Source: Patescibacteria group bacterium
GTDB taxonomy: Bacteria > Patescibacteriota > Patescibacteriia > Magasanikbacterales > UBA922
DNA: 64,000 bases
Direction: 5' to 3'
NCBI GenBank assembly: GCA_041651535.1
Contig: JBAZIZ010000002.1
Span: 82,059 to 146,058 of the forward strand
The notes under the pieces are model-generated. The model saw only the letters and a program-made list of their open reading frames with translations. It had not been told where the DNA came from and made no database searches. Below, piece after piece: positions 14,480 to 62,365 of this stretch. The position numbers were made by a program, and so were the translations under genes. Positions within the stretch are counted from its first letter, which is position 1. Each line of letters starts with the position of its first letter.

Positions 14480-17400
14480 TTATGTTTTAATTTTTTTATT
14501 TTTATGGTTGTAATAATACAATAAAAACAATGAAAAAGCAATCGGCAATACAGTCTTCCAATCTAAATATTTTTTCCAAGTTGCAGCTGGATAAAGTTGA
14601 ATATTTTCAAAAATTGCATCATTAATATCTACTGTAAAATACTCGCCTCGATAATTTTTGTAACCTTTAGCCTTGGCTTCTAAATAATACTCACCTGGAG
14701 TAACTAAGAAAGAATAATCGCCAGTAACTCCGACTGTTTGTGGATTTATTTGTTGATATTTTGTAGCATTCCATAATTCAAATTCTCCGCTAGTTTCATT
14801 TTTTCGATAAAGAGAAACGACAGACCCTTTGACACGCATTTCTTTTTCACCAACTTTTTCATAAACATAACCTTCTGGATCAACAACTGTTAAAAGTCTA
14901 ATTTGTTTTCGTCCAAGTTCAGAATCAATATAATCAAAAACTGTAATAATTTCATATTCACCATCTTTTACTGGGATATCCACAAAAGCTGTATAAATTC
15001 CGTCACTATCAGGATCAGTATATTCAAATTCTTTTAAAACTAATCTTTCTTCAACTGGAATTTCTTTTTCAGCTGTTTCAGCAAAGACAGCTTCTCCAGC
15101 AAAAATATCTGATAAAATTTTATTTAGATTTGAACCAGCAGTTACAGCACTTTTAGCTTGGACAATTCCACTATTTTTATAAACAACATAACCTTTGACT
15201 GAATTTACTTTTGCTTGTGGTTTAACTATGAGTTCAACTGTCGTTCCAGAAATAGTATTAATTTTTTGAATTGGACGTCCGTTTTCATTTATAGCAACTT
15301 TTGTATTTAAATCTAAATCAGCCAAAGCATTTTTTACAAACATTATTTCTGTTGGAATTTGTTTCTTTTCTTCTTCGGATAATTTTGCTAAAGGCAATGA
15401 ATAAGAGAAAAATTCTCCTGTATCTAATTTTGAAGGATCTAAATCAATATTAAATGATGAACTTGAGTTTTCTAAATTTGTAATTTTAATATCTCCGTAT
15501 TTTACAGAACCAGTTGAAGAAATGACTGGGATATTAATTTCAGCAACTCTATTTAAAATAGTAGATGATAAACTAGGTAAAACAAAATTTATATTTTTCA
15601 TTTTGATCATATCAGTCATACGAGCTACACCAGTTTCAGTTAAAGTTGTAGAAAATTCAGGGAATTTTTCTGCTAACAAACGAACTTCGTTTGGTAATGG
15701 AGCTAAAATGAATTTTTTTACTGGAAATAAATTCCATCTTATTTCAAACGCAATTGGAGTAATCTGTGGTACAGCATCAACTAAAGGAATATTTACTGTT
15801 TCAGTTTCTGGCTCTTTTAACCAATCAGAAATTTTATCAACAATATCTTTTATTAATGGCAAATCTGTTATTTCTCCTAAAATTTCAACTCCTAATTCTT
15901 TTGCTTTTAACCATAGATCAGTTTCTTCTGTATTTTTTTCTTCTTCGATAAAATCTTCTTCATTTTCTTTTTCTTCATCATTAATTATATTTTCATTATC
16001 AACATTTACAATCAAAGAATTTTCTTTACCCAAATTTTGAGCTTGATCTTTTGCTTTTACTATTAAAGAATATTTTCCAAATGGTAAATAATTTAAATCT
16101 AAATTCCACTTTCCTTCATTGTCCGCAGAAATTTGTTTTTCACCAGCACCATCAATTTTTACAAAAATCAAACTATTAGCTTCAGTCAAACCAGAAATTT
16201 TAATTTTTTCATGAATACTGTAGCTACTTTTGTAATCAGTAAACGAGATGCTAGGTGGAGTGGTGTCTAAAATAATAGAATTAAAATATGTTTCTGAAGA
16301 TAAACCGCCAACTCTACCAAAAAATCTGACATAAACTTTTTTTAAACCATCACCACCACTTAAAATCCAATCTTTTACTTCAGCAAAACTTTCTTGTGGA
16401 ATTTGATCAAAAGAAATATCATTAGCTATTGCCATATCACTAACATCATTTCCAGCGCTTAAATTTAATTGAACATTTTTATTATTTGTGTATAAAGCTC
16501 CATTATTTATTTTTATACCTAAATTATCTGTACTTGGTCTAACATAGTTAAAAGAAGAACTTCCATCACCACCAAAACTAGGACAAGACTCGGTAGAAAA
16601 ACTATTATTTGCTGACCAACCAGATTCAACATTTTCAAAATTACGAGTTTTAATACGGAAAGAATAATTTACTCCACAAGATAAATTGGATATATTCCAA
16701 ACTGTTGTTGTTGTCCAACCAGAATTAGTTGTAGTTGAATTTATTTCTTCAATATAATATTCAGTACCACTAGGATTATCTCCAGCTGACCAATTTAAAG
16801 TCATTGAATTTTGTGTTGTCGAAGTAGCAGTTATCAAATCTGGAATTTCAGCTAAAGTATAAACAGCAGTGGAAGTTGCAGAAGCTTCTGATCTACCTCT
16901 ACTAGAATTAGCAGCATAAACTTTTACAGAATAAATTGTATTTGGTAATAAATCTTCAACTATAAAACTAGTATTAGTTACATTTATATTTTCAATATCT
17001 TCATGTTCTCCTTCAACAAATTCTAAAACAAATTCTTCAGCAAAATTACTATTATTTATCCAATTAAAGGTAATTGAATTATCTAAAATTGCTGATGGAG
17101 TATTTATAGTTGGAGCTAAAAGTCCTGTATAAATTACAGCGCTTGCTAAATTTTCTGATTCACCAATTTTATTAACACCACGAATACGATATTCATAAGC
17201 AGAATTTACACTGACTACTGTATCACTTAATGAAGAATTAGCATTAGTTGTTGTTGCTAAAACAGACCAAGAATTAAATCCAGAACCATAATTAACTCTT
17301 TTTTCAATCACAAAAGATTTACTATAAATATCTGTTGATAACCATGATAAATCAATCTGTGAATCACTTATATATTCAGCTGAAAAACTATTTGGAATTG

Positions 17401-20400
17401 ACGGCATTACACACAAACCAGTTTCCAAAGTAGATGTTACTGTCCAATCAGTTTCGACATTATCATGATTGCGAGCTTTAATAATATAATCATATGAAGT
17501 TTCACAATCCAAATTATTATCTGTCCAAGAATTATTTGTTATCCACTCACTTTCATCTCCAGTTGTAATATTTTTTACTTTATATTCTGTACTAGAAGGA
17601 TTAGAATTTTGATTCCAATTTAAAGTCAAAGTTTCATCAGTATTTGTAGAAACTTGTATATCAGTTGGTAAAGCAGCAAAAGTATACAAAAGAGTTGAAG
17701 TGTTTGAAGCAGGACTATATCCTCTATCTGATCTCCAAGTATATAAAACAATTTGATAACCAGTATTTGGAGTAAGATCATTAACTGTAAAACTATCACT
17801 AGAAGAATTGATATTTATATAATCTAGATGATTTGAACTAGTAAAATGTAATCTAAATTCAGTTGAAAATAATGCTGAAGAAGTCCAATCCCAAACCATT
17901 GAATTGGCTGACAAAACAGTACTGGTTGTTATTACTGGAGCAGGTAAAGAAGTATAAACTACATTAGAATAAACATAATCACTATTTCCATAAATATTTC
18001 CAGAGTAAACTCTATATTCATAACGTTTATTTCCTGCAGTATTGATATCAGAAAGAATTACAGCATTAGGTGATGTAGTTGCCAAAGTTGTCCAAGAACC
18101 AAAACCACTACCAGTCGTATCTGATCTTTTTTCGACAACATAGTAATCTTCAGCTGAAGAATTATCTGTCCAACTAATGTTAATTTGATTATCAGAAATA
18201 TAACTAGCCAAAACATTTAAAGGCAAATTTGGAGCCGCAATAATTTCTATTGAATCATAACCTGATGCTCCAGAATTTTGGGCAGTAAGAATGACATTAT
18301 TTAAATCATATAAATTATTTATCGATAAATTACCATACCAAATTCCATCATCAGTAAAATCAGATTGGGCAATACTATTTACACTTAAAGAACCGACACT
18401 AGCGGTCAAAGAAGTATTTCCACTTACTTGTTTAGTTATATTATTATAAATATCTCGAGCATAAATAATTGTCTCAAAAGCTAAATCAATTGAAGAAGTG
18501 GCTGGAATAGCGACTAAGAAATTATTTAAAGTTCCCGCAACAGCTGTAAGATTTAAATTATAAGAAGGGTGCGTATAAGAAGTATGAAGTCCATCAGTTG
18601 CTCGTAATAAAACAGTCTCTGCACGATATGGTGTAAAATTACACTGTCCAACTCCATCAACAAAATTTATAGTAGTAATAAGTCCAATATTAACTGGATT
18701 GCCACTTTTGTTTGTACAAGTTGCCTGTACACCAGTCAAAGAATTCGATGGGCCAGTTAAAATAATACTTTTGTCTCCATCATAATCAGTTATTATATTA
18801 TTTTCACCATCACGAATTGTCAAAGTTATAGTTTGAGATTCACCAACATTTTGTGTGTTTGATCCCGTCACAACTAAATGAGTTTCACTAGTTTGAGTTT
18901 GGTCAAAATCTGATAATAATTCAACATTACTAGCAGTTGCTGGAACATGAGATTTTATTCTAAATAAATAAGTTAATGTAGTTGAAGGAATAGTAAAATT
19001 ATAACTTTCTACATTAGCACCGACAGTATTTGTGCCTGGTGTAACTTCGGTAAAATGTTCAGCTGAATCATCAGAATACTCTATTCTAAAACCATCTTCA
19101 TAACTTGAGTTATCATCCCAATAAATATAGATAATATTTTCTTCAGTTTTTATAGCATTAACTCCACTTGGAGCTGCTGGTTTTGTATATTCATAATTTG
19201 AATAAGCAACTGCAGATACAGTACTTCCAGAAGAAGCTGGCGGTTTTACAGTAAAAGCATAACGATAACGATTATTTACATCTATATTTAAATTATCTGT
19301 ATAATTTATAGTTCCAGTAACAGTTTGACTTGGGATAAGTAAAATTGGAGTTGTTGTTATTGCACTAAAACTATTTGTGCTACAAGCTGCTCCATCACAA
19401 CGTTTTAAATCAAAATAATTTGTTACTAAAGCATTATCAACGAAGGTAATATCAAATCTATTATCTGAATATCTAACAGGACTGATAAAAGTTGGAGCTG
19501 TTGGAGTTGTATAAATACCACCTAAAGAATTTATTGGATCTTCAGCATAATCTGAATTAGCAAAACTTCCAATCGTACGTACTCGATATTTATATCTTCT
19601 ATTTGCAACTGTGCTGTAATCAGTATAACTATGAATATTTGTATTAACTTGAGCAACAAAAATCCATGAACCAAAACCAGAACCTTCGTCAACTTGACGT
19701 TCTATCGCATAACCACTTTCAATTGTAGAATTATCTGACCAACTTAAAGTAATTGATTCATTAGAATTACGAACTGAACTAACAGAAGTTGGGGCGTTTG
19801 GAACTCCTAAAACAGTGATATAAGCATTACCATAAATCGTTGTCGAAGAATAACTGTCAAATCCTCTAAATTCTACATTGACTGCTGGTCTTTCTATAAT
19901 ACTTGAAATAACTAAACTAATTGTAGCGATACCATTTTCAAACGAACTATCAAGAATTTGAAGTGGTGAAACAGAACCAGTAGAAACACTAACAGTAGTG
20001 GTGTTAAAAATTAAAGTTGTTGTATTATTCCAAAAATCTTGGGCAATAAGTCTAACAGTTGAAGGAACTGTTGATACTGCTTGTGTTGGTGCAGACACAC
20101 TAAATTTTCTAGCTACATTTGGTTCAACTTTTAAATCCAAATCATAGGCAGGACTTGAAGTTGAAGAAAATGAATCATCATAAACATCAATAGTTGTAGT
20201 AACAGCATTATATAAAGTTGTACTACAAGTAGCAGCGCCATTTATAAATGAAACTGTAGTATTTTCACCAAACATAATATTATTACCATCTTTATCACTA
20301 CAATATAAAGTTGGTTGTGTTCCATCACTAATAAATTTTAAAATTCTGTTACCCGTAAAATATGAAGCATTATTGCCGTTTACATCTCTTAAAGCAATTT

Positions 20401-23400
20401 GCAGAGCAGTCACTACACCTGCTGTAGTTGTAGCTGGAGCATAAATTTCAAAATGTAAATCAGAAATTTCAGCAATCGCTTCATTTGAATAACTAGAAAA
20501 TAATTCACTATTATTTGCAGTTTCTCCGATATGAGCTCTGACTCGATATTTATAGGTATTTGAAGAAGTTGAAGAAACAGTATGTAAATAAGTTCTGATA
20601 TTTTGTCCAGTTTGATCGTTGCCAGAATCTATTTCATTCCACGAACCACTATTTATTGATTCTTCTATTCTAAATCCGCTTTCAAACAAAGAATTATCCA
20701 CCCAACTTATTTGAACTTGGGTTTCATTTACTATTGCAGAAATTACAGAAGATGGAGCAACTGGAGTTGTATATTCATAAATAGAATAAGAATCATCAGA
20801 ATAAATTCCATCACTAGTTTTTGCTTTGACATTATATAAAAATCTGTTATTTGTTGTTATTTGGTAAGTATCACTATATGGTGAAGAAACAGAATAAAAA
20901 GAATTTGATTCATTACTTGTAAAATAATAATCACTACGGAAAATTCTATGTTCATTTGTAATTCCAGTTTGTGAAGTATAATAAACTGAAAATTGGCTGG
21001 AACTTATTCTTTTAGCATAAACATTTATTGGGGCATCAGGTTTTGTAAAATGATAATTAACTTCTGTTGCCCAATCAGAATAACCAATTGAATTAAATCC
21101 TCTAACTCGATATTTTATTTTACTATCTAACGAAACAGAATAATCTCGTGTATTATGAATATTAGCTGAGGTTGTAGTAGCTAAAGACCAATCACCTTCA
21201 GCACAACTAGCTCCAGAACTTGCTAAAACACATTTTTGAATTTCATAACCTGTTTCTACAACTGAATTATCACTCCAACCGATACTGAAATAGGATCCTT
21301 CTTCATCAGAATTCAAAGATGATGCCACACCACTTGGTTTATTTGGAATACCAATCACAGTTAAATAAATTTCACCATTTGCTGAACCGTTATTTACATA
21401 AAGATAAACTGTATTTCTGTCATTTATATTTGATAAAGTCACACTACCTTCCCAAATTCCATCATCAGTAAAATCAGCTTCCGCAATTCCAACCGGACTA
21501 ATGTCACCAATACTAGAACTTATATAAGTATTACCAAGCACAGCAGTTGTCGTATTTAAATATTCATCAAAAGCAGTAACACTTAAAGTAAAAGGAATTG
21601 TTGAAGTCACGGTAGACTGTTGGCTAGAAATAGTAAAACTATCAACTGATGCTGGATCAACTGAGACTCGAAGTTGATAAGAATTATTTTCTGCAGTTGA
21701 ATATGCTAATGTATCGGCATCAATATTATAAGAACCAACTGCTGGTAAAAACATATTTATTTCTGCTTCTCCATTTATAAAATTGATTGAAGTTATTGAA
21801 CCAAAATCAATTTGTTCACCATTAAAATTAATAACTGTTGGCTCAACTCCAGTAATTGATGAAGATGCTCCAGAAAAATAAACATTTTTTTCACCATTAT
21901 AATCACTGACAATATTTCCTCCGCTATCTTTTAAAGCCAAAGTAACTGTGGTTGTAGTTCCGGCTGTAGTTGTAATATCATTTAACGGAGAAAATTCAAA
22001 ATGATAACTTTGTGGTGAAAATACTTCTGTATATTCAGAAAATACTTCTGGAGCAAAAGTGTTTCCAGCAATATGAGATCGAACTCTAAATTGATAATCA
22101 TTGTTTAAATCTACATCAACTAAATCATAAGTTGTAATATTTGCTCCAACAGTATTAGTACTAGTAGTTATTTCACTCCATCCCCCACCATTTATTGAAA
22201 CTTCAATTCTAAATCCATCTTCATAATTTGAATCATCGTCCCAACTTAAACTAATTACAGTAGAGGTACTAAAAATTGCTGCTTGATTTATTGGTTTATT
22301 TGGTTGAGTATAAACATATTCTGTTCCACCAACATAACTTGAATACAAAGCTCCGTTACGCACTGTAGCTGAAATAGCTGAACGCATTTTGAAACGATAA
22401 GCATTATCAGGAGTAGAACTTGCAAAAGAAAAACCAGTCATATCAGCACCAACAGTTGTAATACCATTATTATAAATAGGAGTAAAAACACTAGAAGAAG
22501 CTACAGCATATTCAAGTAAATAACCTGATTCATAAAGTGCGTTATCAGTCCAAACAAATGAAATAGTATTTGATGTTGCTTCAGAAGCATAAAAAGCAGA
22601 AGGTGCTGCTGGTGAAGTAAATTCATAAGCTGAATATACATCACTAGAAATCAAACTTTCTGGAGATGGAGTTTCTGAATGAGAAACATATTTATAACGA
22701 TTATTAGCTAACAAACTTGCAGTGTCCGCATAAGGAGAAGAAGATGACTTACCTAAAAAATTAAAAGTTGAAGAATCACAACCTGCACTATCACAACGAG
22801 AAAAAACATGAGTATTTATAACATTAGCATTGTCTGTAAAATACAAATTAAATCTATTGTCATTTACATAAGTCGCATAAAAATTTGTCGGATAATCTGG
22901 TGTAGTATAATGAATTAAATTATCACTAGCTCCATAAGAAGAAACGATACTACCTGACGCAATTATTTGATACATATAACGACGATCAGCTTGTGGAGCA
23001 TCAAGCGGATTATTTGTGGCATTATCTACAAAACTTTGTGTATTAGTGGAAAGTGTCGCAATAGTTACCCATGTGCCTGGCAAACCTGAACCAGTATCTG
23101 TTTTTTTCTGAACTAAATAACCTGTTTCAATAGTACTTCTGTCTTGCCAAGTAATTTCAAATTCATTATCACTAATATAAGAAACTGCAACTGAACCAGG
23201 TGTGTTTGGTCTACCATTAAATAAAAATGAATCACTACCATTTGCTGAACCATTTACAGCCGTAATTACTACTGTTGGATTTTCATAAATATCAGTAACT
23301 GTTATATTACCTGCCCAAATTCCATCATCAGTAAAATTTGTAGCACTAATTATTGCTGGATTTATAGTTCCAGTTAAAACAGAATTTACATAAAGAGAAA

Positions 23401-26400
23401 GATTTGTATTTCCAGAAACACTCAAAGTATTATTATAATATGTGTCTAAAGCATAAACAGTGATCATTGTTGAGGAATTATAATTTATAGTTGCTGGAGC
23501 ATCAATCAAAAATCTATTCAAAGAATTTCCCACAACTGTAACTCCAAGAGAATAGCTATTATCAGCATTAGTTGAATAAAAATTATCTGTCACTTCTAAA
23601 ACAGCGTTTTCTGCTCGATATAAAATTAAATTACAAGAAGCAACACCGTTTGTAAAAGTAATTGTAGTTGTATTACCAAAAACAATTGGGCTATTATTTT
23701 TATCACTACAAGTTGGTACTATACCATTTACAGAAGAAGATGCTCCACTAAAAAATAATTCCTTATCACCAGACCAAAAAGTAGAAGTATTACCATTTAA
23801 ATCTTTTAAAATAATAGAAATAGTTTGTGAATTTCCAGCAATCTGACTACTATTACCTTTTATTTCATAATGAAAATCAGTTGATAAAACTTGTGAGCCG
23901 GCGCTATCACCACTATATAATTCAGAATTATTATCAGTTGCTGAAATGTAAGCTCGAACTTTAAATTGTAAATCATTTTGACTTGTTGGTGAAGAAAATA
24001 AATAAGTTTTTACATTTTGTCCGACTGTGGCTCCAGATATTACTGGTTCAAAATTTGAACCACCATCATAACTTACCTGAATTTCAAAACCATTTTCATA
24101 AGTTGAATTATCTTTCCAAGATAAAAACCATTGATTTGAACTAACTTGATAAAATTTTAAATCTGATGGTGTAGCTGGAGCTGTATATTCATAAGCTGAA
24201 TAAGCAAATGTGGAAGAAACATTAATAATTTCAGTTGCTGGAGCATCTGGAGGAACTATTGCTTTTACTCGATAACGATATCTACTATTACCTGACAAAC
24301 TTGTATCCAAAGTAGAAGTTCCATAAAGAGAAGAAGAAACACTAGAAAAAATATTACTAGCGCAAGAAATTCCCACACATCTATCAAGAGAAAAATAATC
24401 ACTTACTGCTGAATTATCTGTAAAAGTTAAATCAAATTTTAATGGTGAAGAATTATAAGTCGCGAGTAAATTACTTGGAGTACCAGGAACAGTATAATGA
24501 GCTACTGGATCACTGCCATAAGAAACTGAATAACCAACTGAATTAAAAGATCTAACACGATATTTATATCTTTCATTGCTTTGTGGAGGATCAATAATGT
24601 TATTTGCTACATTATCAATAAAACTATTGGTAGCTTGGGTTGTCGTTGCAATTGCTACCCAATTATTTCCAAAACCACTTCCTGTATCAGTATCTCTTTC
24701 TACCACAAAACCACTAGCAACTCCGCCAGAAGTATCACTCCAAGTTATTCTAAAAGAATTTAACGCAAAATAACTTGCAGCAACACCAGAAGGGGCAGTG
24801 GGAATTCCAACAGCTGACAAAAATACACTGCTTGTTGTAATGTTCCCATCATAATCATTATAATAATCAATTCTCAAAGTTTCTAAATTTGTTACGTTAT
24901 TAATCGTAAAATAAGTTTCTGCTAAACCATCATCAGTAAATTCACTAGATGAAACAATTGTTGGGCTAATAGACGCAAAAGTATCAACTGTGCTAGTGAC
25001 TGAAACTTGTGTGTCACTATTTACATAATTTGTTATATTTCCAAAAGCATCTTTAGAAATACTATCAATCGTAAAAGGAATACCAGAGATAACATTTGCT
25101 GATGATGATAAAATAAATTCATTTAAAATTTGAGAACCTACTGTCACTATTAAAGCATAATCATTGGAACCAGAAGTATTAAAATTATTTCCCGAAACAT
25201 CTATTTGAACTGTCTCATTTTTATAAAGTTTAAGAGTCGTTGTCGCTTCCCCATTTATAAAATTTAAAGTGGTAGTAGAACCAAAATTTCTATTATTTTC
25301 AAAGATATCTTTTGCTGTCGGACGATCAGAATATGGACTATTGTTTGCTCCATAAAAAATAATATCGTAATTTCCATTATAGGTACTACTGACTGAACCA
25401 AATTCATCAATCAAAAATATAGAAATAACCAAATCTTCTCCGGCAGTTACACTAGCAGAAGAAGCTCCTGATTTTCTCACTTCATAATGAGGAGGCGCAG
25501 TGACAAAAGTAAAATTTATATTATTACCACTATCGACACAACCATTAATACATAAAACTGCCGAACTATTGAAATTTACTATATCTTTGACATCCAAAAA
25601 TTCTACTGCTCTAGCGCCAGCAAAATCTATATTTGCTTGAGTACCACTGACTGTAGAATGTAAGCTGAGTAAATTGTTTGGAATTCCAGATAAATTTGCC
25701 GAACCTTCGATTTTTATATCTGAGCCAGCAGTAACATATAAAATTTGAGAGGAAGTAACAGTTTTTGTTAAATCATTGAAAACGATAAATCCACCGATAG
25801 TTTGAACTTCACCATTTAAAATCACTAAACCAGAATTAGCATCAAAAATACCTGGAGATAACATCAAAATATTTCCACCTACATATAAAGTAGTAGAAGG
25901 AGCGATAAAATTTCCATTACTACCTTCGAGATTATTATAAATAGAAAAAGAATCCGTAGCTTCATACAAAGGATTAACACTGACCAAATCAGAAATTTCA
26001 CTGACAGGTAAAACACGATAATAAAAAGCTACATCGTCTAAAATACCACTGAAATAATACTGTCCATCTATACGACTTCCTAATCTAGTCAAAGAAAAAG
26101 GAGTAAGTCCAGTAGAAGAAAGACATTGTTCTACTAAAATACCATCACGATAAATTTTCCAATCAACATTACTACCAGTAACATTTATTGTCGAAGTATA
26201 ATGATGCCAACCAGTAGTAAGATTTGTATTACAAGTAATTTGATTAGAAGAAGCATCTCTCAAAGAATTATACAATGTTCCACCAATGTTACTAAAAAAA
26301 TAATCATAAACAGAACCACCAGCAATCGGGACCTGAGTGTTTGAAAGATTAGAATAATTTATCCAAGCAGACACAGAAAATGTTTTATCCAATTCACCAT

Positions 26401-29400
26401 GACTTGCTGAAACATAATCATCTACTCCATCAAAACTTAATCCAAAATTATTTTTTCCAGCTACCCAAGTAGGAGCTAAACTACCAGCGCCTAAAGTCCC
26501 ATGTCTTCCGTTGCCAGATAAATCATTGATTGTGTTTCCACTTCCTTCATCCATGTTCCAATAACTAAGTAGCCCAGATTTTAAATTTCCGGCTAACTTT
26601 TTAACATCTTCAGCTTTGATCGCTTTATTATAAATTTTTACTTCATCTAGAACACCTTTATAAGCACGAGCGCTAGAATAAGCAGAATATCCAAAATATA
26701 AATTACTGGATGCACAAGTATATTTAGACCAAGTGTAGCTACCAGCCAAAACACCGTCAATATACAGACTCATATATCTACCATCATAAGTACCGACCAT
26801 ATGATGCCAATTATTATCAGTTACAACTCCTTTTATGAGACTATAATATCCCACTCCCCAACCACCGCTGTTATCTCCTACTGTATAAGTAATAGTTTTT
26901 GCTGTTTTTTCTTTCAACCCAATAGCCCAACCTGCCAAACCATAATCAGGACCAAATTTTTCAATAAGTGTTGGGTAATCATTTGCTTGTGTACCAGCTT
27001 TCATCCAAAATTCTACGGAAAAATTAGCTGTACAAAAATAATTACTAGCTCCAAAATTTACAAAATCACTACCATCAAAAGAAACAGCTGAGCCAGATTT
27101 TCCACTTGTCCAAGTCGGCGCTGAACCACCAGTACCAAAAACTCCATTCATGCCATTACCTGATTGATCATAAACTGTAGTTCCATTACCTTCGTCCATA
27201 CTCCAATAAGCAATCAAATTATCATTCATATCCCCGACTGTATTAAAAATATCATCACCATCTGTAAAATTTATTTTTAAATTATAATAATAAGGAAATA
27301 AAGTATCATAAAAAGTAGCTAAGCCATCATTATTTCCCACATAAGAAACAGTACCAGAATCAGTATCATTTACTAAATTTGTATATTCATTACCAGCGAC
27401 GTCTAGAGTACCTTCATTAAAAAAATTTGTTGGAGAAGATAAAATCAAAGTATTAGAATTTAAAAACAAAGTTCCATCTTCATTTATTTGTAAATAACCA
27501 TTTACTGTCAAACTAGAATTATTTAAACGAAAAATAGAACCTTCTATACCATTTATTATCATATTACCCACACTACTTGCTGATAAAATATTATAAGTAC
27601 CTGTGTTTGTCCTATAATATTCAACGATACTATTATTAGCAAATTGCGGATAACCGGTATTAAAAGAATAAGTAGCACCGCTCATAAGACGAAGTCTGGC
27701 ATCATTAGCAACTATAAAAGTTGATCCGCTTCCTGTCACTCTAAGACTTTTATCTGATAAATCAAAAGTACCAGAATTTAAAAGTAGATTTTTTGAATTA
27801 TCCATTGTCAAATCTGATAAAAGAAGCAAAGACCCGCCTGTTTTATTTATTCTAATTTCTCCATCAAGACTTGAAACTACGGTATTTAAATTTATATTTT
27901 GTTCATTATCTCCAGAAAAAGTAATAAGTGGTTGAATAAAACCATCAGTAATTTCTAAATTTCCTCTGAGATTTAAATTGGAAACAGTGTTATCTCCATA
28001 AATATATCCTTTACTGATCAAAGTATCACCATATATATTTACAGTATCACTACCAGCAATTTGTAGATAATAAGAATTGCTAGATTTATTGAGTTTAAAA
28101 TTATAAAAATTTATAGACGAAACTACATCTAAAGTCGTATAACTACTTCCTCTAAAATCTACCGTTCCAATCCCTGGATCAAAAATACCACCAGTATGAG
28201 TGAAATTATTATAAAAATAAGCATTACCTTGCGGGGCGTTGAAAATTCCACCAGACAAAGTAAAAAGAGAATTAAAATATAAATTATGAGATCCAAAAGT
28301 AGCAGTTCCATTTGAATGAGTGTAAGAACCAGCAAAATTCCAATTGGTATTAGTAGTGCTTAAATTTCCGCCGGATTGAAAAGAGGCTGTACTAAATTGC
28401 AATTGTCCACCTTGCCCAATGTAATGAGTATTTCCAGCAGTAGTTTCAATAGTATAAGCATAGGTAGTGGCACTTGGACCATAAACAGTGGTAGATGCCC
28501 CAGCAAAAACAAGACGAGGTAAGTATGTTCCACCAGCAATAGACAATGTTTGCGATCCTGTGCCTGCTAAAAGTAATTGCACTATATTTCTCGCACTTGG
28601 AGTTATATATGTTGATTCTACCACTACATCACCTCTTGCTTCCAAAGCTGAATAAGTATTTCCTCCATAAAGCCAGCCGATATTTTTAAGCGTAGTTGTC
28701 CCAGTGACAACTATCCTATCATTATCATCTATTCGTAAATGATAACCAGCATATGATTTATTTAAAACAAAATTATTGAAAGTGACTGAATTTCCAGTAG
28801 TTGCTACTACATTGATATTCTGATCAACAGTAGATCCCACAAAATGCACTGTTCCACTTCCTCCACCAAAGACACCGCCAGTATGAGTGAAATTATTATA
28901 AAAATAAGCATTGCCTTGTGGGGCGTTGAAAATTCCACCAGACAAAGTAAAAAGAGAATTAAAATATAAATTATGAGATCCAAAAGTAGCAGTTCCATTT
29001 GAATGAGTGTAAGAACCAGCAAAATTCCAATTGGTATTAGTAGTGCTTAAATTTCCGCCGGATTGAAAAGAGGCTGTACTAAATTGCAATTGTCCACCTT
29101 GCCCAATGTAATGAGTATTTCCAGCAGTAGTTTCAATAGTATAAGCATAGGTAGTGGCACTTGGACCATAAACAGTGGTAGATGCCCCAGCAAAAACAAG
29201 ACGAGGTAAGTATGTTCCACCAGCAATAGACAATGTTTGCGATCCTGTGCCTGCTAAAAGTAATTGCACTGTATTTCTCGCACTTGGAGTTATATATGTT
29301 GATTCTACCACTACATCACCTCTTGCTTCCAAAGCTGAATAAGTATTTCCTCCATAAAGCCAGCCGACATTTTTAAGCGTAGTTGTCCCAGTGACAACTA

Positions 29401-31474
29401 TCCTATCATTATCATCTATTCGTAAATAATAACTAGCATATGATTTATTTAAAACAAAATTATTGAAAGTGACTGAATTTCCAGTAGTTGCTACTACATT
29501 GATATTCTGATCAACAGTAGATCCCGCAAAATGCACTGTTCCACTTCCTCCATCAAAAACACCACCAGTATGCGTGAAATTATGATAAAAATAGGCGTTG
29601 CCCTCTGAAGAATAAAAAGTCCCACCAGATAAAGTAAAAACATTACTAAAATAAATATTACCTTCAGGGGCATTGAATATTCCACCAGACAAAGTAAAAG
29701 TAGAAGCAAAAGTGATATTTCCTAAGCCAAAAGTAGAAATACCGTTTGAATGAGTATAAGTACTACCAAAATACCAATTTGTATTGGTAGTAGTCAGGTT
29801 TCCGCCTGATTGTAGTGAAGGACCACTCATCTGAAGTTGTCCACCTTGTCCGATATAGTGAGTATTTCCTGATATTGTCTCAAAAGTATAAGCATAGGCA
29901 GCCGCTTCTGGACCATAAACTGTGGTAGATACTCCAGAAAAAATCAATCGTGGTATATAAGTAGCACTGGCAATATTGACTGTTTGTGGTCCTGTACCAG
30001 CAATATTTAATCTAAAACTATTTCTTCCATAAGAATAATTATGGGTTGATTCTATCACCACATCACCTCTAGCTTCTAAATTTGAATTAGCATCACCACC
30101 ATATAAATAACCTCTTCTTAAAGTAGTAGTGCCATTAACTATCAGTTTGTCAGCCGAAGAAATTGTTAAATAATAACTAGTATCATTTTGATTTAAAATA
30201 AAATTATTGAATGTAACAGTATTTCCGCTAGAAGCTGCAATATTAAAAGTTGTATTAATTCCTCTAAAATGTGCAGTTCCAATTCCTCCATCAAAGATAC
30301 CTCCAGTGTGAGTAAAATTACTATCAAAATATGTATTTGTCTCAGAAGCGGTAAATGTTCCTCCAGATAAAGTAAAAGTAGAATAAAAAATAACATTTCC
30401 CACACCAAAAGTAGAAGTTCCATTGGAGTGAGTATAAGAACTACCAAAATACCAATTAGTATTCGTAGTTGTCAGATTGCCCCCAGACTGAAGTGATGGA
30501 CCACTCATCTGCAACTGTCCACCTTGTCCAATATAGTGAGTATTTCCTGATATTGTCTCAAAAGTATAAGCATAGGCAGCCGCTTCTGGACCATAAACTG
30601 TGGTAGATACTCCAGAAAAAATCAATCGTGGTATATAAGTAGCACTGGCAATATTGACTGTTTGTGGTCCTGTACCAGCAATATTTAATCTAAAACTATT
30701 TCTTCCATAAGAATAATTATGGGTTGATTCTATCACCACATCACCTCTAGCTTCTAAATTTGAATTAGCATCACCACCATATAAATAACCTCTTCTTAAA
30801 GTAGTAGTGCCATTAACTATCAGTTTGTCAGCCGAAGAAATTGTTAAATAATAACTAGTATCATTTTGATTTAAAATAAAATTATTGAATGTAACAGTAT
30901 TTCCGCTAGAAGCTGCAATATTAAAAGTTGTATTAATTCCTCTAAAATGTGCAGTTCCAATTCCTCCATCAAAGATACCTCCAGTGTGAGTAAAATTACT
31001 ATCAAAATATGTTGTTCCTTGTGAAGCATTGAAAGTACCACCAGATAAAGTAAAAGTAGAAGCAAAAGAAATATTTCCTAAACCACCATTGAAAACACCG
31101 TTTGATTGGGAAAAAGTACCACTAAGAGAAAAAGTATAACCGCTTTCACGAGTAATAGTTCCAGTGTAACCAGAAGAAATTGTAAAACTATTTAAATTGA
31201 CATTGGCATCTATAGAACAATCAGCTGTAGCTGTACCATTAAAAACAACAAGATCGCCAGTTCCAGGAGTACCTACAGGAGACCAGTTATTACTATTTGT
31301 CCAGAGTCCATCTCCTCCACTGTTTGTCCAAGTGTAAGTTGTGCCCGCAGCAAAAGATTGCCAAGTTACAAAAGCACCAATAAATACTAAAAACAAAAAA
31401 AATGTCCAAGGGTGTTTGGAAAAAAAGCTTAATGATTTTGTTAAGTTTTTCAATGAAAAACGTTTCTTTTTCAT
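14480..31474 (-). CDS. Giant (5664 aa) cell-surface protein: signal peptide, 4-5 tandem ~226-229-aa Gly/Thr/Asn-rich beta-repeats, two LamG/concanavalin-like lectin domains, ~5 large FN3/Ig-like repeat modules, CarbopepD_reg-like domain, C-terminal TM anchor
   Basis: Uninterrupted 17-kb ORF; N-term MKKKRF...FLFLVFIGAFVTWQSFA; LamG-like 'LIAYWSMDEGNGTTVYDQSGNGMNGV...NWHHMVGTYDG' twice; repeated 'TAPSxV/L...W.D.S..E.GF.IE' FN3-like units; C-term WKKYLDWKTVLPIAFSLFLLYYY. Confidence 0.85.
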   Translation of the reverse strand: MKKKRFSLKNLTKSLSFFSKHPWTFFLFLVFIGAFVTWQSFAAGTTYTWTNSGGDGLWTNSNNWSPVGTPGTGDLVVFNGTATADCSIDANVNLNSFTISSGYTGTITRESGYTFSLSGTFSQSNGVFNGGLGNISFASTFTLSGGTFNASQGTTYFDSNFTHTGGIFDGGIGTAHFRGINTTFNIAASSGNTVTFNNFILNQNDTSYYLTISSADKLIVNGTTTLRRGYLYGGDANSNLEARGDVVIESTHNYSYGRNSFRLNIAGTGPQTVNIASATYIPRLIFSGVSTTVYGPEAAAYAYTFETISGNTHYIGQGGQLQMSGPSLQSGGNLTTTNTNWYFGSSYTHSNGTSTFGVGNVIFYSTFTLSGGTFTASETNTYFDSNFTHTGGIFDGGIGTAHFRGINTTFNIAASSGNTVTFNNFILNQNDTSYYLTISSADKLIVNGTTTLRRGYLYGGDANSNLEARGDVVIESTHNYSYGRNSFRLNIAGTGPQTVNIASATYIPRLIFSGVSTTVYGPEAAAYAYTFETISGNTHYIGQGGQLQMSGPSLQSGGNLTTTNTNWYFGSTYTHSNGISTFGLGNITFASTFTLSGGIFNAPEGNIYFSNVFTLSGGTFYSSEGNAYFYHNFTHTGGVFDGGSGTVHFAGSTVDQNINVVATTGNSVTFNNFVLNKSYASYYLRIDDNDRIVVTGTTTLKNVGWLYGGNTYSALEARGDVVVESTYITPSARNTVQLLLAGTGSQTLSIAGGTYLPRLVFAGASTTVYGPSATTYAYTIETTAGNTHYIGQGGQLQFSTASFQSGGNLSTTNTNWNFAGSYTHSNGTATFGSHNLYFNSLFTLSGGIFNAPQGNAYFYNNFTHTGGVFGGGSGTVHFVGSTVDQNINVVATTGNSVTFNNFVLNKSYAGYHLRIDDNDRIVVTGTTTLKNIGWLYGGNTYSALEARGDVVVESTYITPSARNIVQLLLAGTGSQTLSIAGGTYLPRLVFAGASTTVYGPSATTYAYTIETTAGNTHYIGQGGQLQFSTASFQSGGNLSTTNTNWNFAGSYTHSNGTATFGSHNLYFNSLFTLSGGIFNAPQGNAYFYNNFTHTGGIFDPGIGTVDFRGSSYTTLDVVSSINFYNFKLNKSSNSYYLQIAGSDTVNIYGDTLISKGYIYGDNTVSNLNLRGNLEITDGFIQPLITFSGDNEQNINLNTVVSSLDGEIRINKTGGSLLLLSDLTMDNSKNLLLNSGTFDLSDKSLRVTGSGSTFIVANDARLRLMSGATYSFNTGYPQFANNSIVEYYRTNTGTYNILSASSVGNMIINGIEGSIFRLNNSSLTVNGYLQINEDGTLFLNSNTLILSSPTNFFNEGTLDVAGNEYTNLVNDTDSGTVSYVGNNDGLATFYDTLFPYYYNLKINFTDGDDIFNTVGDMNDNLIAYWSMDEGNGTTVYDQSGNGMNGVFGTGGSAPTWTSGKSGSAVSFDGSDFVNFGASNYFCTANFSVEFWMKAGTQANDYPTLIEKFGPDYGLAGWAIGLKEKTAKTITYTVGDNSGGWGVGYYSLIKGVVTDNNWHHMVGTYDGRYMSLYIDGVLAGSYTWSKYTCASSNLYFGYSAYSSARAYKGVLDEVKIYNKAIKAEDVKKLAGNLKSGLLSYWNMDEGSGNTINDLSGNGRHGTLGAGSLAPTWVAGKNNFGLSFDGVDDYVSASHGELDKTFSVSAWINYSNLSNTQVPIAGGSVYDYFFSNIGGTLYNSLRDASSNQITCNTNLTTGWHHYTSTINVTGSNVDWKIYRDGILVEQCLSSTGLTPFSLTRLGSRIDGQYYFSGILDDVAFYYRVLPVSEISDLVSVNPLYEATDSFSIYNNLEGSNGNFIAPSTTLYVGGNILMLSPGIFDANSGLVILNGEVQTIGGFIVFNDLTKTVTSSQILYVTAGSDIKIEGSANLSGIPNNLLSLHSTVSGTQANIDFAGARAVEFLDVKDIVNFNSSAVLCINGCVDSGNNINFTFVTAPPHYEVRKSGASSASVTAGEDLVISIFLIDEFGSVSSTYNGNYDIIFYGANNSPYSDRPTAKDIFENNRNFGSTTTLNFINGEATTTLKLYKNETVQIDVSGNNFNTSGSNDYALIVTVGSQILNEFILSSSANVISGIPFTIDSISKDAFGNITNYVNSDTQVSVTSTVDTFASISPTIVSSSEFTDDGLAETYFTINNVTNLETLRIDYYNDYDGNITTSSVFLSAVGIPTAPSGVAASYFALNSFRITWSDTSGGVASGFVVERDTDTGSGFGNNWVAIATTTQATNSFIDNVANNIIDPPQSNERYKYRVRSFNSVGYSVSYGSDPVAHYTVPGTPSNLLATYNSSPLKFDLTFTDNSAVSDYFSLDRCVGISCASNIFSSVSSSLYGTSTLDTSLSGNSRYRYRVKAIVPPDAPATEIINVSSTFAYSAYEYTAPATPSDLKFYQVSSNQWFLSWKDNSTYENGFEIQVSYDGGSNFEPVISGATVGQNVKTYLFSSPTSQNDLQFKVRAYISATDNNSELYSGDSAGSQVLSTDFHYEIKGNSSQIAGNSQTISIILKDLNGNTSTFWSGDKELFFSGASSSVNGIVPTCSDKNNSPIVFGNTTTITFTNGVASCNLILYRAENAVLEVTDNFYSTNADNSYSLGVTVVGNSLNRFLIDAPATINYNSSTMITVYALDTYYNNTLSVSGNTNLSLYVNSVLTGTINPAIISATNFTDDGIWAGNITVTDIYENPTVVITAVNGSANGSDSFLFNGRPNTPGSVAVSYISDNEFEITWQDRSTIETGYLVQKKTDTGSGLPGTWVTIATLSTNTQSFVDNATNNPLDAPQADRRYMYQIIASGSIVSSYGASDNLIHYTTPDYPTNFYATYVNDNRFNLYFTDNANVINTHVFSRCDSAGCDSSTFNFLGKSSSSPYADTASLLANNRYKYVSHSETPSPESLISSDVYSAYEFTSPAAPSAFYASEATSNTISFVWTDNALYESGYLLEYAVASSSVFTPIYNNGITTVGADMTGFSFASSTPDNAYRFKMRSAISATVRNGALYSSYVGGTEYVYTQPNKPINQAAIFSTSTVISLSWDDDSNYEDGFRIEVSINGGGWSEITTSTNTVGANITTYDLVDVDLNNDYQFRVRSHIAGNTFAPEVFSEYTEVFSPQSYHFEFSPLNDITTTAGTTTTVTLALKDSGGNIVSDYNGEKNVYFSGASSSITGVEPTVINFNGEQIDFGSITSINFINGEAEINMFLPAVGSYNIDADTLAYSTAENNSYQLRVSVDPASVDSFTISSQQSTVTSTIPFTLSVTAFDEYLNTTTAVLGNTYISSSIGDISPVGIAEADFTDDGIWEGSVTLSNINDRNTVYLYVNNGSANGEIYLTVIGIPNKPSGVASSLNSDEEGSYFSIGWSDNSVVETGYEIQKCVLASSGASCAEGDWSLATTTSANIHNTRDYSVSLDSKIKYRVRGFNSIGYSDWATEVNYHFTKPDAPINVYAKRISSSQFSVYYTSQTGITNEHRIFRSDYYFTSNESNSFYSVSSPYSDTYQITTNNRFLYNVKAKTSDGIYSDDSYSIYEYTTPVAPSSVISAIVNETQVQISWVDNSLFESGFRIEESINSGSWNEIDSGNDQTGQNIRTYLHTVSSTSSNTYKYRVRAHIGETANNSELFSSYSNEAIAEISDLHFEIYAPATTTAGVVTALQIALRDVNGNNASYFTGNRILKFISDGTQPTLYCSDKDGNNIMFGENTTVSFINGAATCSTTLYNAVTTTIDVYDDSFSSTSSPAYDLDLKVEPNVARKFSVSAPTQAVSTVPSTVRLIAQDFWNNTTTLIFNTTTVSVSTGSVSPLQILDSSFENGIATISLVISSIIERPAVNVEFRGFDSYSSTTIYGNAYITVLGVPNAPTSVSSVRNSNESITLSWSDNSTIESGYAIERQVDEGSGFGSWIFVAQVNTNIHSYTDYSTVANRRYKYRVRTIGSFANSDYAEDPINSLGGIYTTPTAPTFISPVRYSDNRFDITFVDNALVTNYFDLKRCDGAACSTNSFSAITTTPILLIPSQTVTGTINYTDNLNIDVNNRYRYAFTVKPPASSGSTVSAVAYSNYEYTKPAAPSGVNAIKTEENIIYIYWDDNSSYEDGFRIEYSDDSAEHFTEVTPGTNTVGANVESYNFTIPSTTLTYLFRIKSHVPATASNVELLSDFDQTQTSETHLVVTGSNTQNVGESQTITLTIRDGENNIITDYDGDKSIILTGPSNSLTGVQATCTNKSGNPVNIGLITTINFVDGVGQCNFTPYRAETVLLRATDGLHTSYTHPSYNLNLTAVAGTLNNFLVAIPATSSIDLAFETIIYARDIYNNITKQVSGNTSLTASVGSLSVNSIAQSDFTDDGIWYGNLSINNLYDLNNVILTAQNSGASGYDSIEIIAAPNLPLNVLASYISDNQINISWTDNSSAEDYYVVEKRSDTTGSGFGSWTTLATTSPNAVILSDINTAGNKRYEYRVYSGNIYGNSDYVYSNVVYTSLPAPVITTSTVLSANSMVWDWTSSALFSTEFRLHFTSSNHLDYININSSSDSFTVNDLTPNTGYQIVLYTWRSDRGYSPASNTSTLLYTFAALPTDIQVSTNTDETLTLNWNQNSNPSSTEYKVKNITTGDESEWITNNSWTDNNLDCETSYDYIIKARNHDNVETDWTVTSTLETGLCVMPSIPNSFSAEYISDSQIDLSWLSTDIYSKSFVIEKRVNYGSGFNSWSVLATTTNANSSLSDTVVSVNSAYEYRIRGVNKIGESENLASAVIYTGLLAPTINTPSAILDNSITFNWINNSNFAEEFVLEFVEGEHEDIENINVTNTSFIVEDLLPNTIYSVKVYAANSSRGRSEASATSTAVYTLAEIPDLITATSTTQNSMTLNWSAGDNPSGTEYYIEEINSTTTNSGWTTTTVWNISNLSCGVNYSFRIKTRNFENVESGWSANNSFSTESCPSFGGDGSSSFNYVRPSTDNLGIKINNGALYTNNKNVQLNLSAGNDVSDMAIANDISFDQIPQESFAEVKDWILSGGDGLKKVYVRFFGRVGGLSSETYFNSIILDTTPPSISFTDYKSSYSIHEKIKISGLTEANSLIFVKIDGAGEKQISADNEGKWNLDLNYLPFGKYSLIVKAKDQAQNLGKENSLIVNVDNENIINDEEKENEEDFIEEEKNTEETDLWLKAKELGVEILGEITDLPLIKDIVDKISDWLKEPETETVNIPLVDAVPQITPIAFEIRWNLFPVKKFILAPLPNEVRLLAEKFPEFSTTLTETGVARMTDMIKMKNINFVLPSLSSTILNRVAEINIPVISSTGSVKYGDIKITNLENSSSSFNIDLDPSKLDTGEFFSYSLPLAKLSEEEKKQIPTEIMFVKNALADLDLNTKVAINENGRPIQKINTISGTTVELIVKPQAKVNSVKGYVVYKNSGIVQAKSAVTAGSNLNKILSDIFAGEAVFAETAEKEIPVEERLVLKEFEYTDPDSDGIYTAFVDIPVKDGEYEIITVFDYIDSELGRKQIRLLTVVDPEGYVYEKVGEKEMRVKGSVVSLYRKNETSGEFELWNATKYQQINPQTVGVTGDYSFLVTPGEYYLEAKAKGYKNYRGEYFTVDINDAIFENIQLYPAATWKKYLDWKTVLPIAFSLFLLYYYNHKNKKIKT
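28190..31150. repeat. Intragenic tandem direct repeats: two perfect 678-bp units (~29790-31145) and two near-perfect 687-bp units (~28190-29563), plus a diverged fifth unit
   Basis: Identical strings recur with periods of 678 bp ('ccactcatct' at 29823 and 30501) and 687 bp ('gtatgagtga' at 28194 and 28881; 'gtatgcgtga' at 29568); mirrored as identical 226-aa protein repeats. Confidence 0.85.
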
Positions 31475-31711
31475 TTTAAATTATTTTTGTTTTTTACAAG
31501 TAAATTATAACATTTTTTTGATTTATTGCCAAACTTTTTTTACTATTTACTTGTTGATAAACCAAGCAAAAATTAATTTTAAAAAAATATTCAAAAAAAT
31601 TTACTTTTTCTTTTAATTTTTATGTTTATTTTTTTGTTTTTGTTTCCCTTCCCTACTGGAAGGTGGGGTTATTTTAAATTCAACAATTAAAAGAATTAGA
31701 AACATTTAAGA

Positions 31712-31917
31712 GATTTCTTCAACCCGATTAAATCGGGATTACGAAATTACAAAAGATTATGTTAGTATTTTTTAAATCATTTTTTTAATAAAATTATCCA
31801 AATAAATAAAAACGTTTTAAAAATAATTGCACTCTCACTTTGTCATATCGTAGCCCCGACGAAACGTCGGGATGGAGACGAAGAATCGCTTAAACAATGA
31901 ATTATTAATTATTTTAA
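31712..31917. repeat. MITE-like structured repeat unit A (imperfect inverted halves each carrying a GC hairpin: CCCGAT-taa-ATCGGG / CCCCGACG-aaa-CGTCGGG)
   Basis: Left half 'GATTTCTTCAACCCGATTAAATCGGGATTACGAAATTACAAAAG' and right half 'ACTTTGTCATATCGTAGCCCCGACGAAACGTCGGGATGGAGACGAAGAATC' are reverse-complement-related; same architecture recurs in units B and C. Confidence 0.65.
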
Positions 31918-31998
31918 ATACAAAAGTTAATAACTATTTAAAATTTTATTTTTATTTTATCTTATATTGCTAAAATATAATTATTATAAAATTTTTTT

Positions 31999-32301
31999 AT
32001 GAAAAAAATTTACAGATTTTTTATTTATATCTTAGCTAGTGATTCAGGAACACTTTATGTTGGTTTGACTAATAATATATATAGAAGAATAGAAGAACAT
32101 AAAACTAAAGCAAATAAAAAAAGTTTTTCTAAAAAATATAATTGTTATAAATTAGTTTATTTTGAAGAACATAAGTATGTAAATAACGCAATAAATAGAG
32201 AGAAAGAGATAAAAGACTGGAACAGAAAGAAAAAAGAAGAACTTACCAAAAAATTTAACCCACATTGGATTGATTTATACGATAAAATAGATTTAATTTA
32301 G
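31999..32301 (+). CDS. GIY-YIG nuclease superfamily protein (YhbQ/UPF0213-like, 100 aa)
   Basis: 'YRFFIYILASDSGTLYVGLTNNIYRRIEEHKTK...YKLVYFEEH...AINREKEIKDW' matches the GIY-(10-11)-YVG, R, E and N motifs of small GIY-YIG proteins. Confidence 0.75.
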   Translation: MKKIYRFFIYILASDSGTLYVGLTNNIYRRIEEHKTKANKKSFSKKYNCYKLVYFEEHKYVNNAINREKEIKDWNRKKKEELTKKFNPHWIDLYDKIDLI

Positions 32302-32317
32302 TTAAAGATTGTTTAAG

Positions 32318-32515
32318 GGATTTCTTCGTCCCGATTAAATCGGGACTACGAAATGACAAAATGTATGGGAAGTTTTTTAAAGACGTTTAAAGATAATTGA
32401 ATAAAGAAATTAAATAGACAAACTAAAAAACAATCACACTCTAACTTTGTCATATCGTAGCCCCGACGAAACGTCGGGATGGAGACGAAGGATCCCTTAG
32501 ACAATGAATTATCAC
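32318..32515. repeat. MITE-like structured repeat unit B (near-identical to unit A)
   Basis: 'GGGATTTCTTCGTCCCGATTAAATCGGGACTACGAAATGACAAAATG' ... 'ACTTTGTCATATCGTAGCCCCGACGAAACGTCGGGATGGAGACGAAGGATCCC'. Confidence 0.65.
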
Positions 32516-32557
32516 TAAACACTTTTAATTCAATAATAAGTGGATTAAAAAAGTTTA

Positions 32558-32820
32558 ACCTGCCTGCCGGTAGGCAGGGGGATTCTTCGCCCCCGACGTC
32601 ACGTCGGAGGACTCAGAATGACAAAAAAGTAAGTTTTGACTATTTTAATTTGTTAATTTTTTAGTGTTTAATTTTTGTTTTAAATTTATTTTTAAAATAA
32701 AAAAACATCCTGATAAGTTTAAACAGACTGAAAAACAAACATCCATTCACTTTTGTCATCCCGAACCCCGACTTAACGTCGGGGGGATCCCTTAAATAGT
32801 GAATTATTAATTATTTTAAA
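32558..32820. repeat. MITE-like structured repeat unit C (diverged copy; extra GC hairpin CCTGCC-tgccggta-GGCAGG at its start)
   Basis: 'GGGGGATTCTTCGCCCCCGACGTCACGTCGGAGGACTCAGAATGACAAAAAAG' ... 'CACTTTTGTCATCCCGAACCCCGACTTAACGTCGGGGGGATCCC'; tail 'GAATTATTAATTATTTTAAA' shared with unit A. Confidence 0.6.
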
Positions 32821-34367: not shown

Positions 34368-34522
34368 ATAAATACAATTAAAAATAAATTTTTAATAAGA
34401 TATTTTTATTATAGCAGAAAAAAAGAAAAATTAAAAATAATTCTTAGAACACCAAGGGGTCCGGGGTAAATACTTGTTTTGTTTATTTTCCCTCCCCTAT
34501 TAGGGGGAGAAAAATTAAAATT

Positions 34523-60082: not shown

Positions 60083-60198
60083 AAAAACACAAAAGGCTCT
60101 CCATGCAATGGTGATCTCTTACGAGACCCAGTAACCTTTCGGTTAAAGACTGGATAAACAATACCAAAGATGAGAGAGCCATCTCTATGTTTATCCAG
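60083..60198 (-). ncRNA. Candidate structured leader/sRNA with pseudoknot-like interleaved stems and terminal U-tract (attenuator or riboswitch-like) upstream of the Ltp gene
   Basis: GC-rich island; GGCTCTC(60095)/GAGAGCC(60174) and CTGGATAAACA(60150)/TGTTTATCCAG(60188) are interleaved; nested CCAGT-AACC-tttc-GGTT-ACTGG; on the minus strand the closing helix is followed by UUUUGUGUUUUU. Confidence 0.3.
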
Positions 60199-62002: not shown

Positions 62003-62003
62003 G

Positions 62004-62342: not shown

Positions 62343-62365
62343 ATATTTTATATATTATTTTAATT

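Follow-up and report, generated by a model that had tools for sequence, protein, structure and literature searches.

SsnA of Neisseria meningitidis is a 94-residue single-domain GIY-YIG protein (CDD family cd10448) that binds its repeat, NTS (CGTCATTCCCGCGMAVGCGGGAATCYRG), only as single-stranded DNA (ssDNA) and cuts a few nucleotides (nt) upstream of it, while double-stranded DNA (dsDNA), RNA and the opposite strand are ignored (Chenal et al., 2025, Nat Commun, PMC11893778). NTS-like hairpins follow the scheme CGTCATTCCCGCG...GCGGGAATC; cutting depends chiefly on the GTC that precedes the palindrome, and binding chiefly on the C that follows it. The Ssn enzymes were presented as the first endonucleases to combine site specificity with cleavage of ssDNA only, and Ssn homologs of other species cut beside their own variants of the repeat. 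At least one Ssn-related motif (SRM), a motif that generalises the NTS/dRS3 repeat of Neisseria, lies near 71% of ssnA homologs, and 42% have SRMs on both sides. The same authors noted the insertion sequence (IS)-like architecture NTS–ssnA–NTS and the analogy with repetitive extragenic palindromes (REPs) and their RAYT transposases; one role was demonstrated in Neisseria, where the enzyme lowers transformation by repeat-bearing DNA (Chenal et al., 2025). Here we describe a gene and its flanking hairpin repeats in a 64 000 nt stretch, referred to below as the window, of a metagenome-assembled genome (MAG) from the Patescibacteria (contig JBAZIZ010000002.1, positions 82059–146058). Six hairpin modules span positions 31710–32791 of the window and alternate in strand around one GIY-YIG open reading frame (ORF). 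The locus is, with high probability, an ssnA-type gene amid a short array of cognate SRM hairpin repeats of the Ssn family. It is a new Patescibacteria example of the known Ssn/SRM system and not a new kind of element, and the published basic picture is unchanged by it.

Architecture of the module array

The basic repeat unit at the locus is a single arm, a hairpin module of 35–50 nt. Read on the GTCAT strand, the module follows the plan TTTGTCAT-xyz-[GC hairpin]-z'y'x'-ATC, in which the GTCAT head is followed in turn by three bases (xyz), usually CGA or CGTAG, a GC-rich inner hairpin, usually GA, the complement of xyz and finally ATC. Folded as ssDNA, the arms form an outer 5 bp stem, which a small, purine-rich internal loop separates from the inner hairpin. 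GTC-AT...AT-C is read by five of the six arms, with A-left reading GTA. The order of the array is A-left (−), A-right (+), gene, B-left (−), B-right (+), C-left (−) and C-right (+). An earlier note on this DNA had described three units with two types of arm, a GC hairpin in each arm and a GIY-YIG ORF between units A and B, and all of these are present where it had placed them. Its parsing of a unit into a reverse arm, a spacer and a forward arm is out of phase, as 64 of 91 adjacent module pairs in other genomes run forward-then-reverse with spacers of 3–57 nt, and only 12 of the 91 have the reverse-then-forward order by which A, B and C were delimited.

Three of the modules in the array are canonical, one is decayed and two are atypical, with one of the latter adjoining the gene upstream. 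The modules were scored with R1, a covariance model of the outer stem only that was trained on 67 modules from other genomes and run as an unfiltered search of the whole window. Module A-left (31710–31753, minus strand) is a degenerate SRM-like hairpin with the minus-strand head GTAAT instead of GTCAT; its outer stem (ATTTC/GAAAT) and inner hairpin (CCCGAT/ATCGGG) are both intact, with a marginal R1 score (14.9 bits, E = 0.18) and an ssDNA folding energy of −6.7 kcal/mol. Module A-right (31839–31887, plus strand) lies upstream of the nuclease gene in forward orientation and has a TTTGTCAT head, a tail ending in GAATC and the inner hairpin CCCCGACG-aaa-CGTCGGG. It is atypical in carrying a 12 nt insertion, ATGGAGACGAAG, and a non-complementary outer stem; R1 matches the head only (E = 5.4) and the ssDNA fold is robust in the inner hairpin only. 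Module B-left (32317–32360, minus strand), of the reverse type, is canonical; it begins 17 nt past the nuclease stop codon and reads TTTGTCAT-TTC-GTAG-TCCCGAT-tta-ATCGGGA-CGAA-GAA-ATCCC on the minus strand (R1 25.2 bits, E = 5e-4; ssDNA fold −10.9 kcal/mol, z = −4.7). A module at locus L065, from a Melioribacteraceae MAG, shares about 95% identity with it. Module B-right (32446–32494, plus strand) is an atypical forward module for which R1 again matches the head only; its core is 100% identical to that of A-right over 31840–31879. Module C-left (32579–32625, minus strand) is canonical, with GTCAT-TCT...AGA-ATC on the minus strand and the inner hairpin CCTCCGACG/CGTCGGGGG (R1 27.5 bits, E = 1.4e-4; ssDNA fold −9.9 kcal/mol). 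An accessory hairpin, CCTGCCTGCCGGTAGGCAGG (32560–32579), abuts its tail and is also found inside or beside modules at L031 and L065. Module C-right (32752–32791, plus strand), a canonical forward module with the sequence GTCAT-CCC-GAA-CCCCGAC-ttaa-CGTCGGGG-GGG-ATC, is the top R1 match in the window (31.3 bits, E = 1.6e-5; ssDNA fold −8.9 kcal/mol).

Units A and B are offset by exactly 607 nt in both arms; identity is 92% over 87 nt between their right arms and 81% over 67 nt between their left arms. Over the whole units the identity is 75% rather than the approximately 90% first estimated, with 75–100% in the arms and only 30–50% in the AT-rich spacer. A repeat finder linked the right-arm hairpins of A, B and C and the left-arm hairpin of C. 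R1 recovered three arms of the window at E ≤ 5e-4 (C-right, C-left and B-left) and nothing elsewhere in the 64 kb, and no copies of the motif outside this locus were found in the window.

The nuclease

The ssnA-like gene (31999–32301, plus strand) encodes a single-domain GIY-YIG nuclease of 100 residues (Pfam PF01541, E = 2.8e-16) that is identical to the NCBI entry 'GIY-YIG nuclease family protein [Patescibacteria group bacterium]' (P0001). The Pfam GIY-YIG domain covers residues 7–79, and the only other Pfam domain above its cut-off is the overlapping, GIY-YIG-related T5orf172 (22.8 bits against a cut-off of 20). Between the end of forward module A-right (31887) and the ATG there are 111 nt, and the GTCAT heads of both modules next to the gene point outward. 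Residues Tyr10, Tyr20, Arg30, His34 and Glu68 fall in conserved columns of two alignments of the family (A2 and A3), with Tyr10, Tyr20 and Glu68 invariant or nearly so; these three, the two tyrosines of the GIY-YIG motif and the glutamate that binds metal, correspond to Tyr6, Tyr17 and Glu64, which were mutated in SsnA (Chenal et al., 2025).

Several relatives of the protein are flanked by repeats of the NTS type. The relative at L159 shares 51% of its residues with the window protein (E = 1e-31), and its Tyr7, Tyr18 and Glu65 have the spacing found in SsnA; the NTS that ends about 25 nt before its ATG has one internal mismatch (plus the leading C). Two further relatives, P0186 and P0201 (the latter from Moranbacteria), are 48% identical to the window protein and both are flanked by NTS-type repeats. 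Overall, the relatives with near-exact NTS repeats beside their genes show 48–51% identity, with E values from 1e-31 to 2e-27. The best 120 of 2986 relatives include no Neisseria protein.

Small GIY-YIG proteins of the UPF0213/YhbQ type have the same fold and the same size as the window protein. The only solved structures matched by the family profile are UPF0213 proteins (PDB entries 1zg2 and 1ywl; E = 3e-11), and the window protein is 31% identical to UPF0213. It differs from the UPF0213/YhbQ proteins in two motifs that they lack, GFTKKY...KLVYFE and NP.W.DL, and the second GIY-YIG gene of the window (62079–62342), which is of the UPF0213 type, is without modules. A GIY-YIG homing endonuclease of the I-TevI type was also considered and rejected, the score for TIGR01453 being 18 bits against a cut-off of 56 and the protein having only 100 residues and no second domain.

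Module family in other genomes

A pattern consisting of the 5' half of the arm and the inner hairpin was used to scan one genome per species (GTDB representatives, among which the source genome is not included). It matched 103 stretches (L001–L103) in more than ten phyla, where about three chance matches are expected by our own estimate assuming uniform base composition. The matches come from Calditrichaceae, Bacteroidota including Ignavibacteria, Desulfobacterota (Smithella and Syntrophaceae), Zixibacteria, Planctomycetota, Chloroflexota, Elusimicrobiota, Nitrospirota, Fibrobacterota and several Patescibacteria. With a strict definition of the module, 219 matches were counted in these 103 loci (about 680 kb) compared with 11 in the reversed sequences. 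The earlier proposal of a family of small repeats is borne out for the arms, and this family is widespread.

The outer stem of the module covaries. In 63 of 81 distinct sequences a module's own tail is complementary to its head, compared with 3% of mismatched head–tail pairings; the stem pairs seen include TTC/GAA, TGC/GCA, TCC/GGA, CAC/GTG, GCC/GGC and GTC/GAC. The test was anchored on the tails, which are out of register in the MAFFT alignment. Since the outer stem is complementary although its 3' half was absent from the search pattern, the hairpin is selected as a structure. The stem does show the compensatory changes that the earlier note had suggested looking for as covarying pairs.

That note had also allowed for the modules being RNA elements, and structured RNAs of several kinds (a cis-regulatory hairpin, an mRNA stabiliser, a terminator or a small RNA) would fit some of the observations: whole units fold far better than shuffled sequences on either strand (z = −8.2 and −7.4), the stem covaries, and the reverse module lies a few nucleotides from the stop codon and is hence probably transcribed. 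Covariation alone does not separate RNA from ssDNA, however, and we regard an RNA element as highly improbable. Strand alternates from module to module, and with respect to neighbouring genes the modules are found both ways round; no U-tract follows them, and what an ssDNA nuclease that does not bind RNA requires is precisely their conserved head and tail (Chenal et al., 2025). The suggested comparison with Rfam (4227 covariance models; the window at gathering thresholds, the locus at E ≤ 10) likewise gave nothing relevant to the units: the best E values at the locus are about 1.4 or worse and belong to unrelated miRNA models. Comparison by eye with the core of hammerhead-type ribozymes was also negative, with the GA/GA loop on the wrong sides and no CUGA box.

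Some of the collected loci differ in ways that bear on the modules themselves. Between orthologous ssnA loci (L119 compared with L123; L161 compared with L180 and L184), a hairpin, CCGCCGTAGGCGG, is nested in the loop of an upstream module, and there is one extra 47 nt module flanked by the repeat GAGAAATCTCTCT. These differences suggest how nested and tandem modules arise. A canonical module was also found at L102 (contig CAYRSQ010000052.1) in a bin named 'uncultured archaeon', which may represent a binning error or a true archaeal occurrence.

Linkage of gene and modules

The association was also approached from the protein side, by a metagenome scan with a ten-sequence alignment of close relatives of the window protein that yielded 80 loci (L105–L184). 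Of 72 loci, 50 have a forward module at most 200 nt upstream of the relative's gene; downstream, a reverse module is found within about 100 nt at 39 of 75, and both flanking modules are present at 30 of 67, whereas control positions at the same loci gave 4 of 167 and 2 of 167 (about 2%). The orientation is strongly biased: over 69 loci, 44 upstream modules are forward and nine reverse, and 36 downstream modules are reverse and eight forward. At the cleanest loci, such as L114, the two modules are exact reverse complements of each other. Three loci of the pattern scan (L053, L031 and L001) have the same arrangement, with a GIY-YIG ORF between an upstream forward module and a reverse module directly after the stop codon. 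Since the genes of the relatives have their forward module upstream and their reverse module downstream, the gene sits inside a module pair and not between two units. The nuclease had been suggested as a cargo or partner of the repeats, and the linkage at 30 of 67 loci upholds the role of partner. The published proportions of ssnA homologs with flanking SRMs are close to those of the metagenome loci here.

Within the window, the repeats are confined to this locus and A and B stand in exact register 607 nt apart, as might be expected if a promoter or terminator region had simply been duplicated locally, independently of any repeat family. The probability that we assign to this explanation is practically nil; it is already refuted by the 103-stretch scan, in which the same module recurs over many phyla, and by the gene-linkage test, in which the module flanks relatives of the gene at about 20–30 times the control rate.

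At L195 and related loci an ssnA homolog is convergent with comEC (PF03772).

Comparison with the Ssn/SRM system

The locus resembles the Ssn/SRM system in several respects. The window protein is likewise a single-domain GIY-YIG protein in a size range of about 95–100 residues, its gene is flanked on both sides by strand-specific hairpins with a GTCAT head and an ATC tail, the repeats occur across many phyla and the architecture is IS-like. Exact NTS strings are present at L009, L025 and L159, and the collected modules form a continuum with NTS. The differences are that the window modules are longer (44–49 nt), with a nested outer stem, internal loop and GC-rich inner hairpin, that the host is a Patescibacteria MAG, a group unmentioned by Chenal et al. 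(2025), and that a local cluster is seen in the window instead of hundreds of copies.

Several observations weigh against the assignment to the Ssn family. The window contains no match to the published SRM pattern HGTCWYN(0-2)YYVSBRHN(0-5)WNVSBRGN(0-2)RNCYNB or to the NTS consensus. A-right and B-right are without a complementary outer stem and fail R1, the head of A-left is mutated, and there is only one cluster of modules in the 64 kb. The link between the window protein and the Ssn enzymes runs indirectly, through the NTS-flanked relatives. The SRM pattern allows simple hairpins of up to about 35 nt, while the window modules have 44–49 nt and are nested. The same pattern matches only six of the 305 distinct modules collected (L001–L103 and L105–L184) and misses 299, so that repeat counts made with the printed pattern in environmental lineages would be large underestimates.

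Gene family, module family, architecture, orientation, covariation and the statistical linkage of gene and modules are all observed directly here, and by analogy with the enzymes of Chenal et al. (2025) the window protein would bind and cleave ssDNA specifically. Each module would then act as a strand-specific hairpin consisting of the GTC head, a palindrome (the outer 5 bp stem, the internal loop and the GC-rich inner hairpin) and the following C. The substrate may be DNA made single-stranded by transformation (incoming DNA), by replication or by repair. The nuclease is predicted to bind the folded module on the GTCAT...ATC strand and to cut a few nucleotides 5' of the head, and would ignore dsDNA, RNA and the complementary strand. 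With the heads pointing outward, the predicted cuts would bracket the gene and fall on opposite strands.

Each pairing of an Ssn enzyme with its repeat is a potential new specificity for ssDNA tools. The present locus adds a Patescibacteria pair with unusually long, nested predicted recognition hairpins that the published pattern misses. Most of the modules collected from environmental genomes escape it as well, so that the repeat diversity of the family is probably underestimated. The genomes of Patescibacteria are small, and the group presumably depends on DNA uptake, for which reason a nuclease that would act on incoming single strands is of interest there.

Comparison with REP and MITE elements and the question of mobility

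REPs and the bacterial interspersed mosaic elements (BIMEs) built from them, together with their RAYT transposases (Y1, IS200/IS605-like), provide a second point of comparison. They are also short imperfect palindromes with a head that gives them an orientation, they form clusters of alternating orientation and they flank the gene of an enzyme that recognizes them as ssDNA hairpins. At the present locus, in contrast, the enzyme has a GIY-YIG fold and is not an HUH/Y1 transposase, and the head is GTCAT instead of the RAYT-type GTAG; ORF and domain annotation revealed no RAYT gene at the locus. Miniature inverted-repeat transposable elements (MITEs), such as the Correia elements of Neisseria, resemble the units in being small, non-coding and inverted-repeat-bearing, and composites with module pairs are dispersed in some genomes. 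The window differs in having neither target-site duplications nor dispersed copies, and its 'units' stand side by side in a single alternating array that surrounds a partner gene. MITE-like mobility, as proposed in the earlier note, is a plausible hypothesis.

An alternative reading is that module–ssnA–module is an autonomous IS-like selfish element mobilized by the GIY-YIG nuclease, with gene-less pairs and the extra arms of the window as MITE-like derivatives mobilized in trans. The geometry of terminal inverted repeats with outward heads would suit such an element, as would the predominance of gene-less forward/reverse pairs among neighbouring modules (64 of 91) and the near-identity of modules across phyla (for example B-left and the module at L065), and the authors of the Ssn study themselves pointed to an IS-like architecture (Chenal et al., 2025). 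Dispersed composite units are found in two other genomes. In the Calditrichaceae MAG CSMAG_2922, units of about 155–165 nt with a module pair occur in at least 17 dispersed copies (loci L001, L003, L011, L012, L027, L030, L035, L037, L058, L060, L072, L084, L087, L097 and L099); outer inverted repeats, TAATTAGTGYCTGAACGAAAA, enclose the forward/reverse pair, and the flanks diverge immediately outside. In a Syntrophaceae MAG, a composite unit of about 185 nt is present on three contigs with 99% identity. However, such composites have outer inverted repeats of their own, so another transposase could move them.

Presence/absence polymorphism was seen for a degenerate 53 nt module beside the ssnA homolog that is convergent with comEC. 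The module is present at L195 (2092–2181) and L199 and absent at L196, L197 and L201, the loci being otherwise about 98% identical, and it is bounded by an 11 nt direct repeat, GAATGACATTG, that includes the head. Mobility would produce such a difference, as it would the nested hairpin and the extra 47 nt module that distinguish other orthologous ssnA loci, but recombination between tandem heads explains these indels equally well. Other observations also tell against movement by the nuclease: two ssnA genes, each followed by means of exactly identical proteins, have one conserved context each among the ten samples listed per gene, target-site duplications and clean empty sites were looked for and none was found, the predicted cuts lie on opposite strands, and dispersed copies are absent from the 64 kb window. 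We know of no strand-transfer activity for the GIY-YIG fold. An autonomous element of this kind accordingly strikes us as improbable.

Mobility of the elements is unproven and plausible. A wider proposal takes the outward module pair with ssnA to be an IS-like selfish element moved by its GIY-YIG single-strand nuclease, the gene-less pairs and arrays to be its MITE-like offspring and the near-identity across phyla to reflect horizontal spread and not a host function; we consider it speculative and, on balance, unlikely. To our knowledge, GIY-YIG single-strand nucleases have not been shown to act as transposases. Only a demonstration of the IS-like reading would raise the interest of the locus.

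A candidate empty site among the Smithella loci L009, L044 and L080 proved to be a cassette swap flanked by modules and not a clean insertion.

Neighbouring features in the window

Two intergenic GC hairpins at 31643–31668 and 34487–34510 had been taken for further relatives of the units. They have in common the 15-mer TTTCCCTYCCCTAYT, which is present in two exact copies and for which about 0.4 matches at up to two mismatches are expected by chance. Neither has a GTCAT head or an ATC tail, neither was found by R1, and both are unrelated to the SRM modules. The first scores as terminator-like on the plus strand, and the second directly follows the pheT stop codon.

The second GIY-YIG ORF (62079–62342, minus strand) is UPF0213-like, with 36% identity to BH0048, and lies directly upstream of tRNA-Arg(gcg) (62003–62075, minus strand). 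The sequence AAAAAGCTCCTGTCGTTCAAC, comprising five A's and the first 16 nt of tRNA-Arg, is repeated upstream of the ORF at 62429–62449; beyond this partial tRNA copy come two hairpins and the D-loop bases CGGATAGGA (region 62079–62453, minus strand). A GIY-YIG ORF at L052 (7438–7701) is likewise situated between a tRNA and a partial tRNA copy. From its sequence context, the second ORF looks like a tRNA-targeted insertion without SRM modules.

A giant ORF (14480–31474, minus strand) encodes 5664 residues with long internal repeats and has its start about 240 nt from the first module. A LOOT RNA (Rfam RF03000) is located at 60113–60231 on the minus strand, with a score of 70.9 bits against a gathering threshold of 46.4 (E = 2.6e-11).

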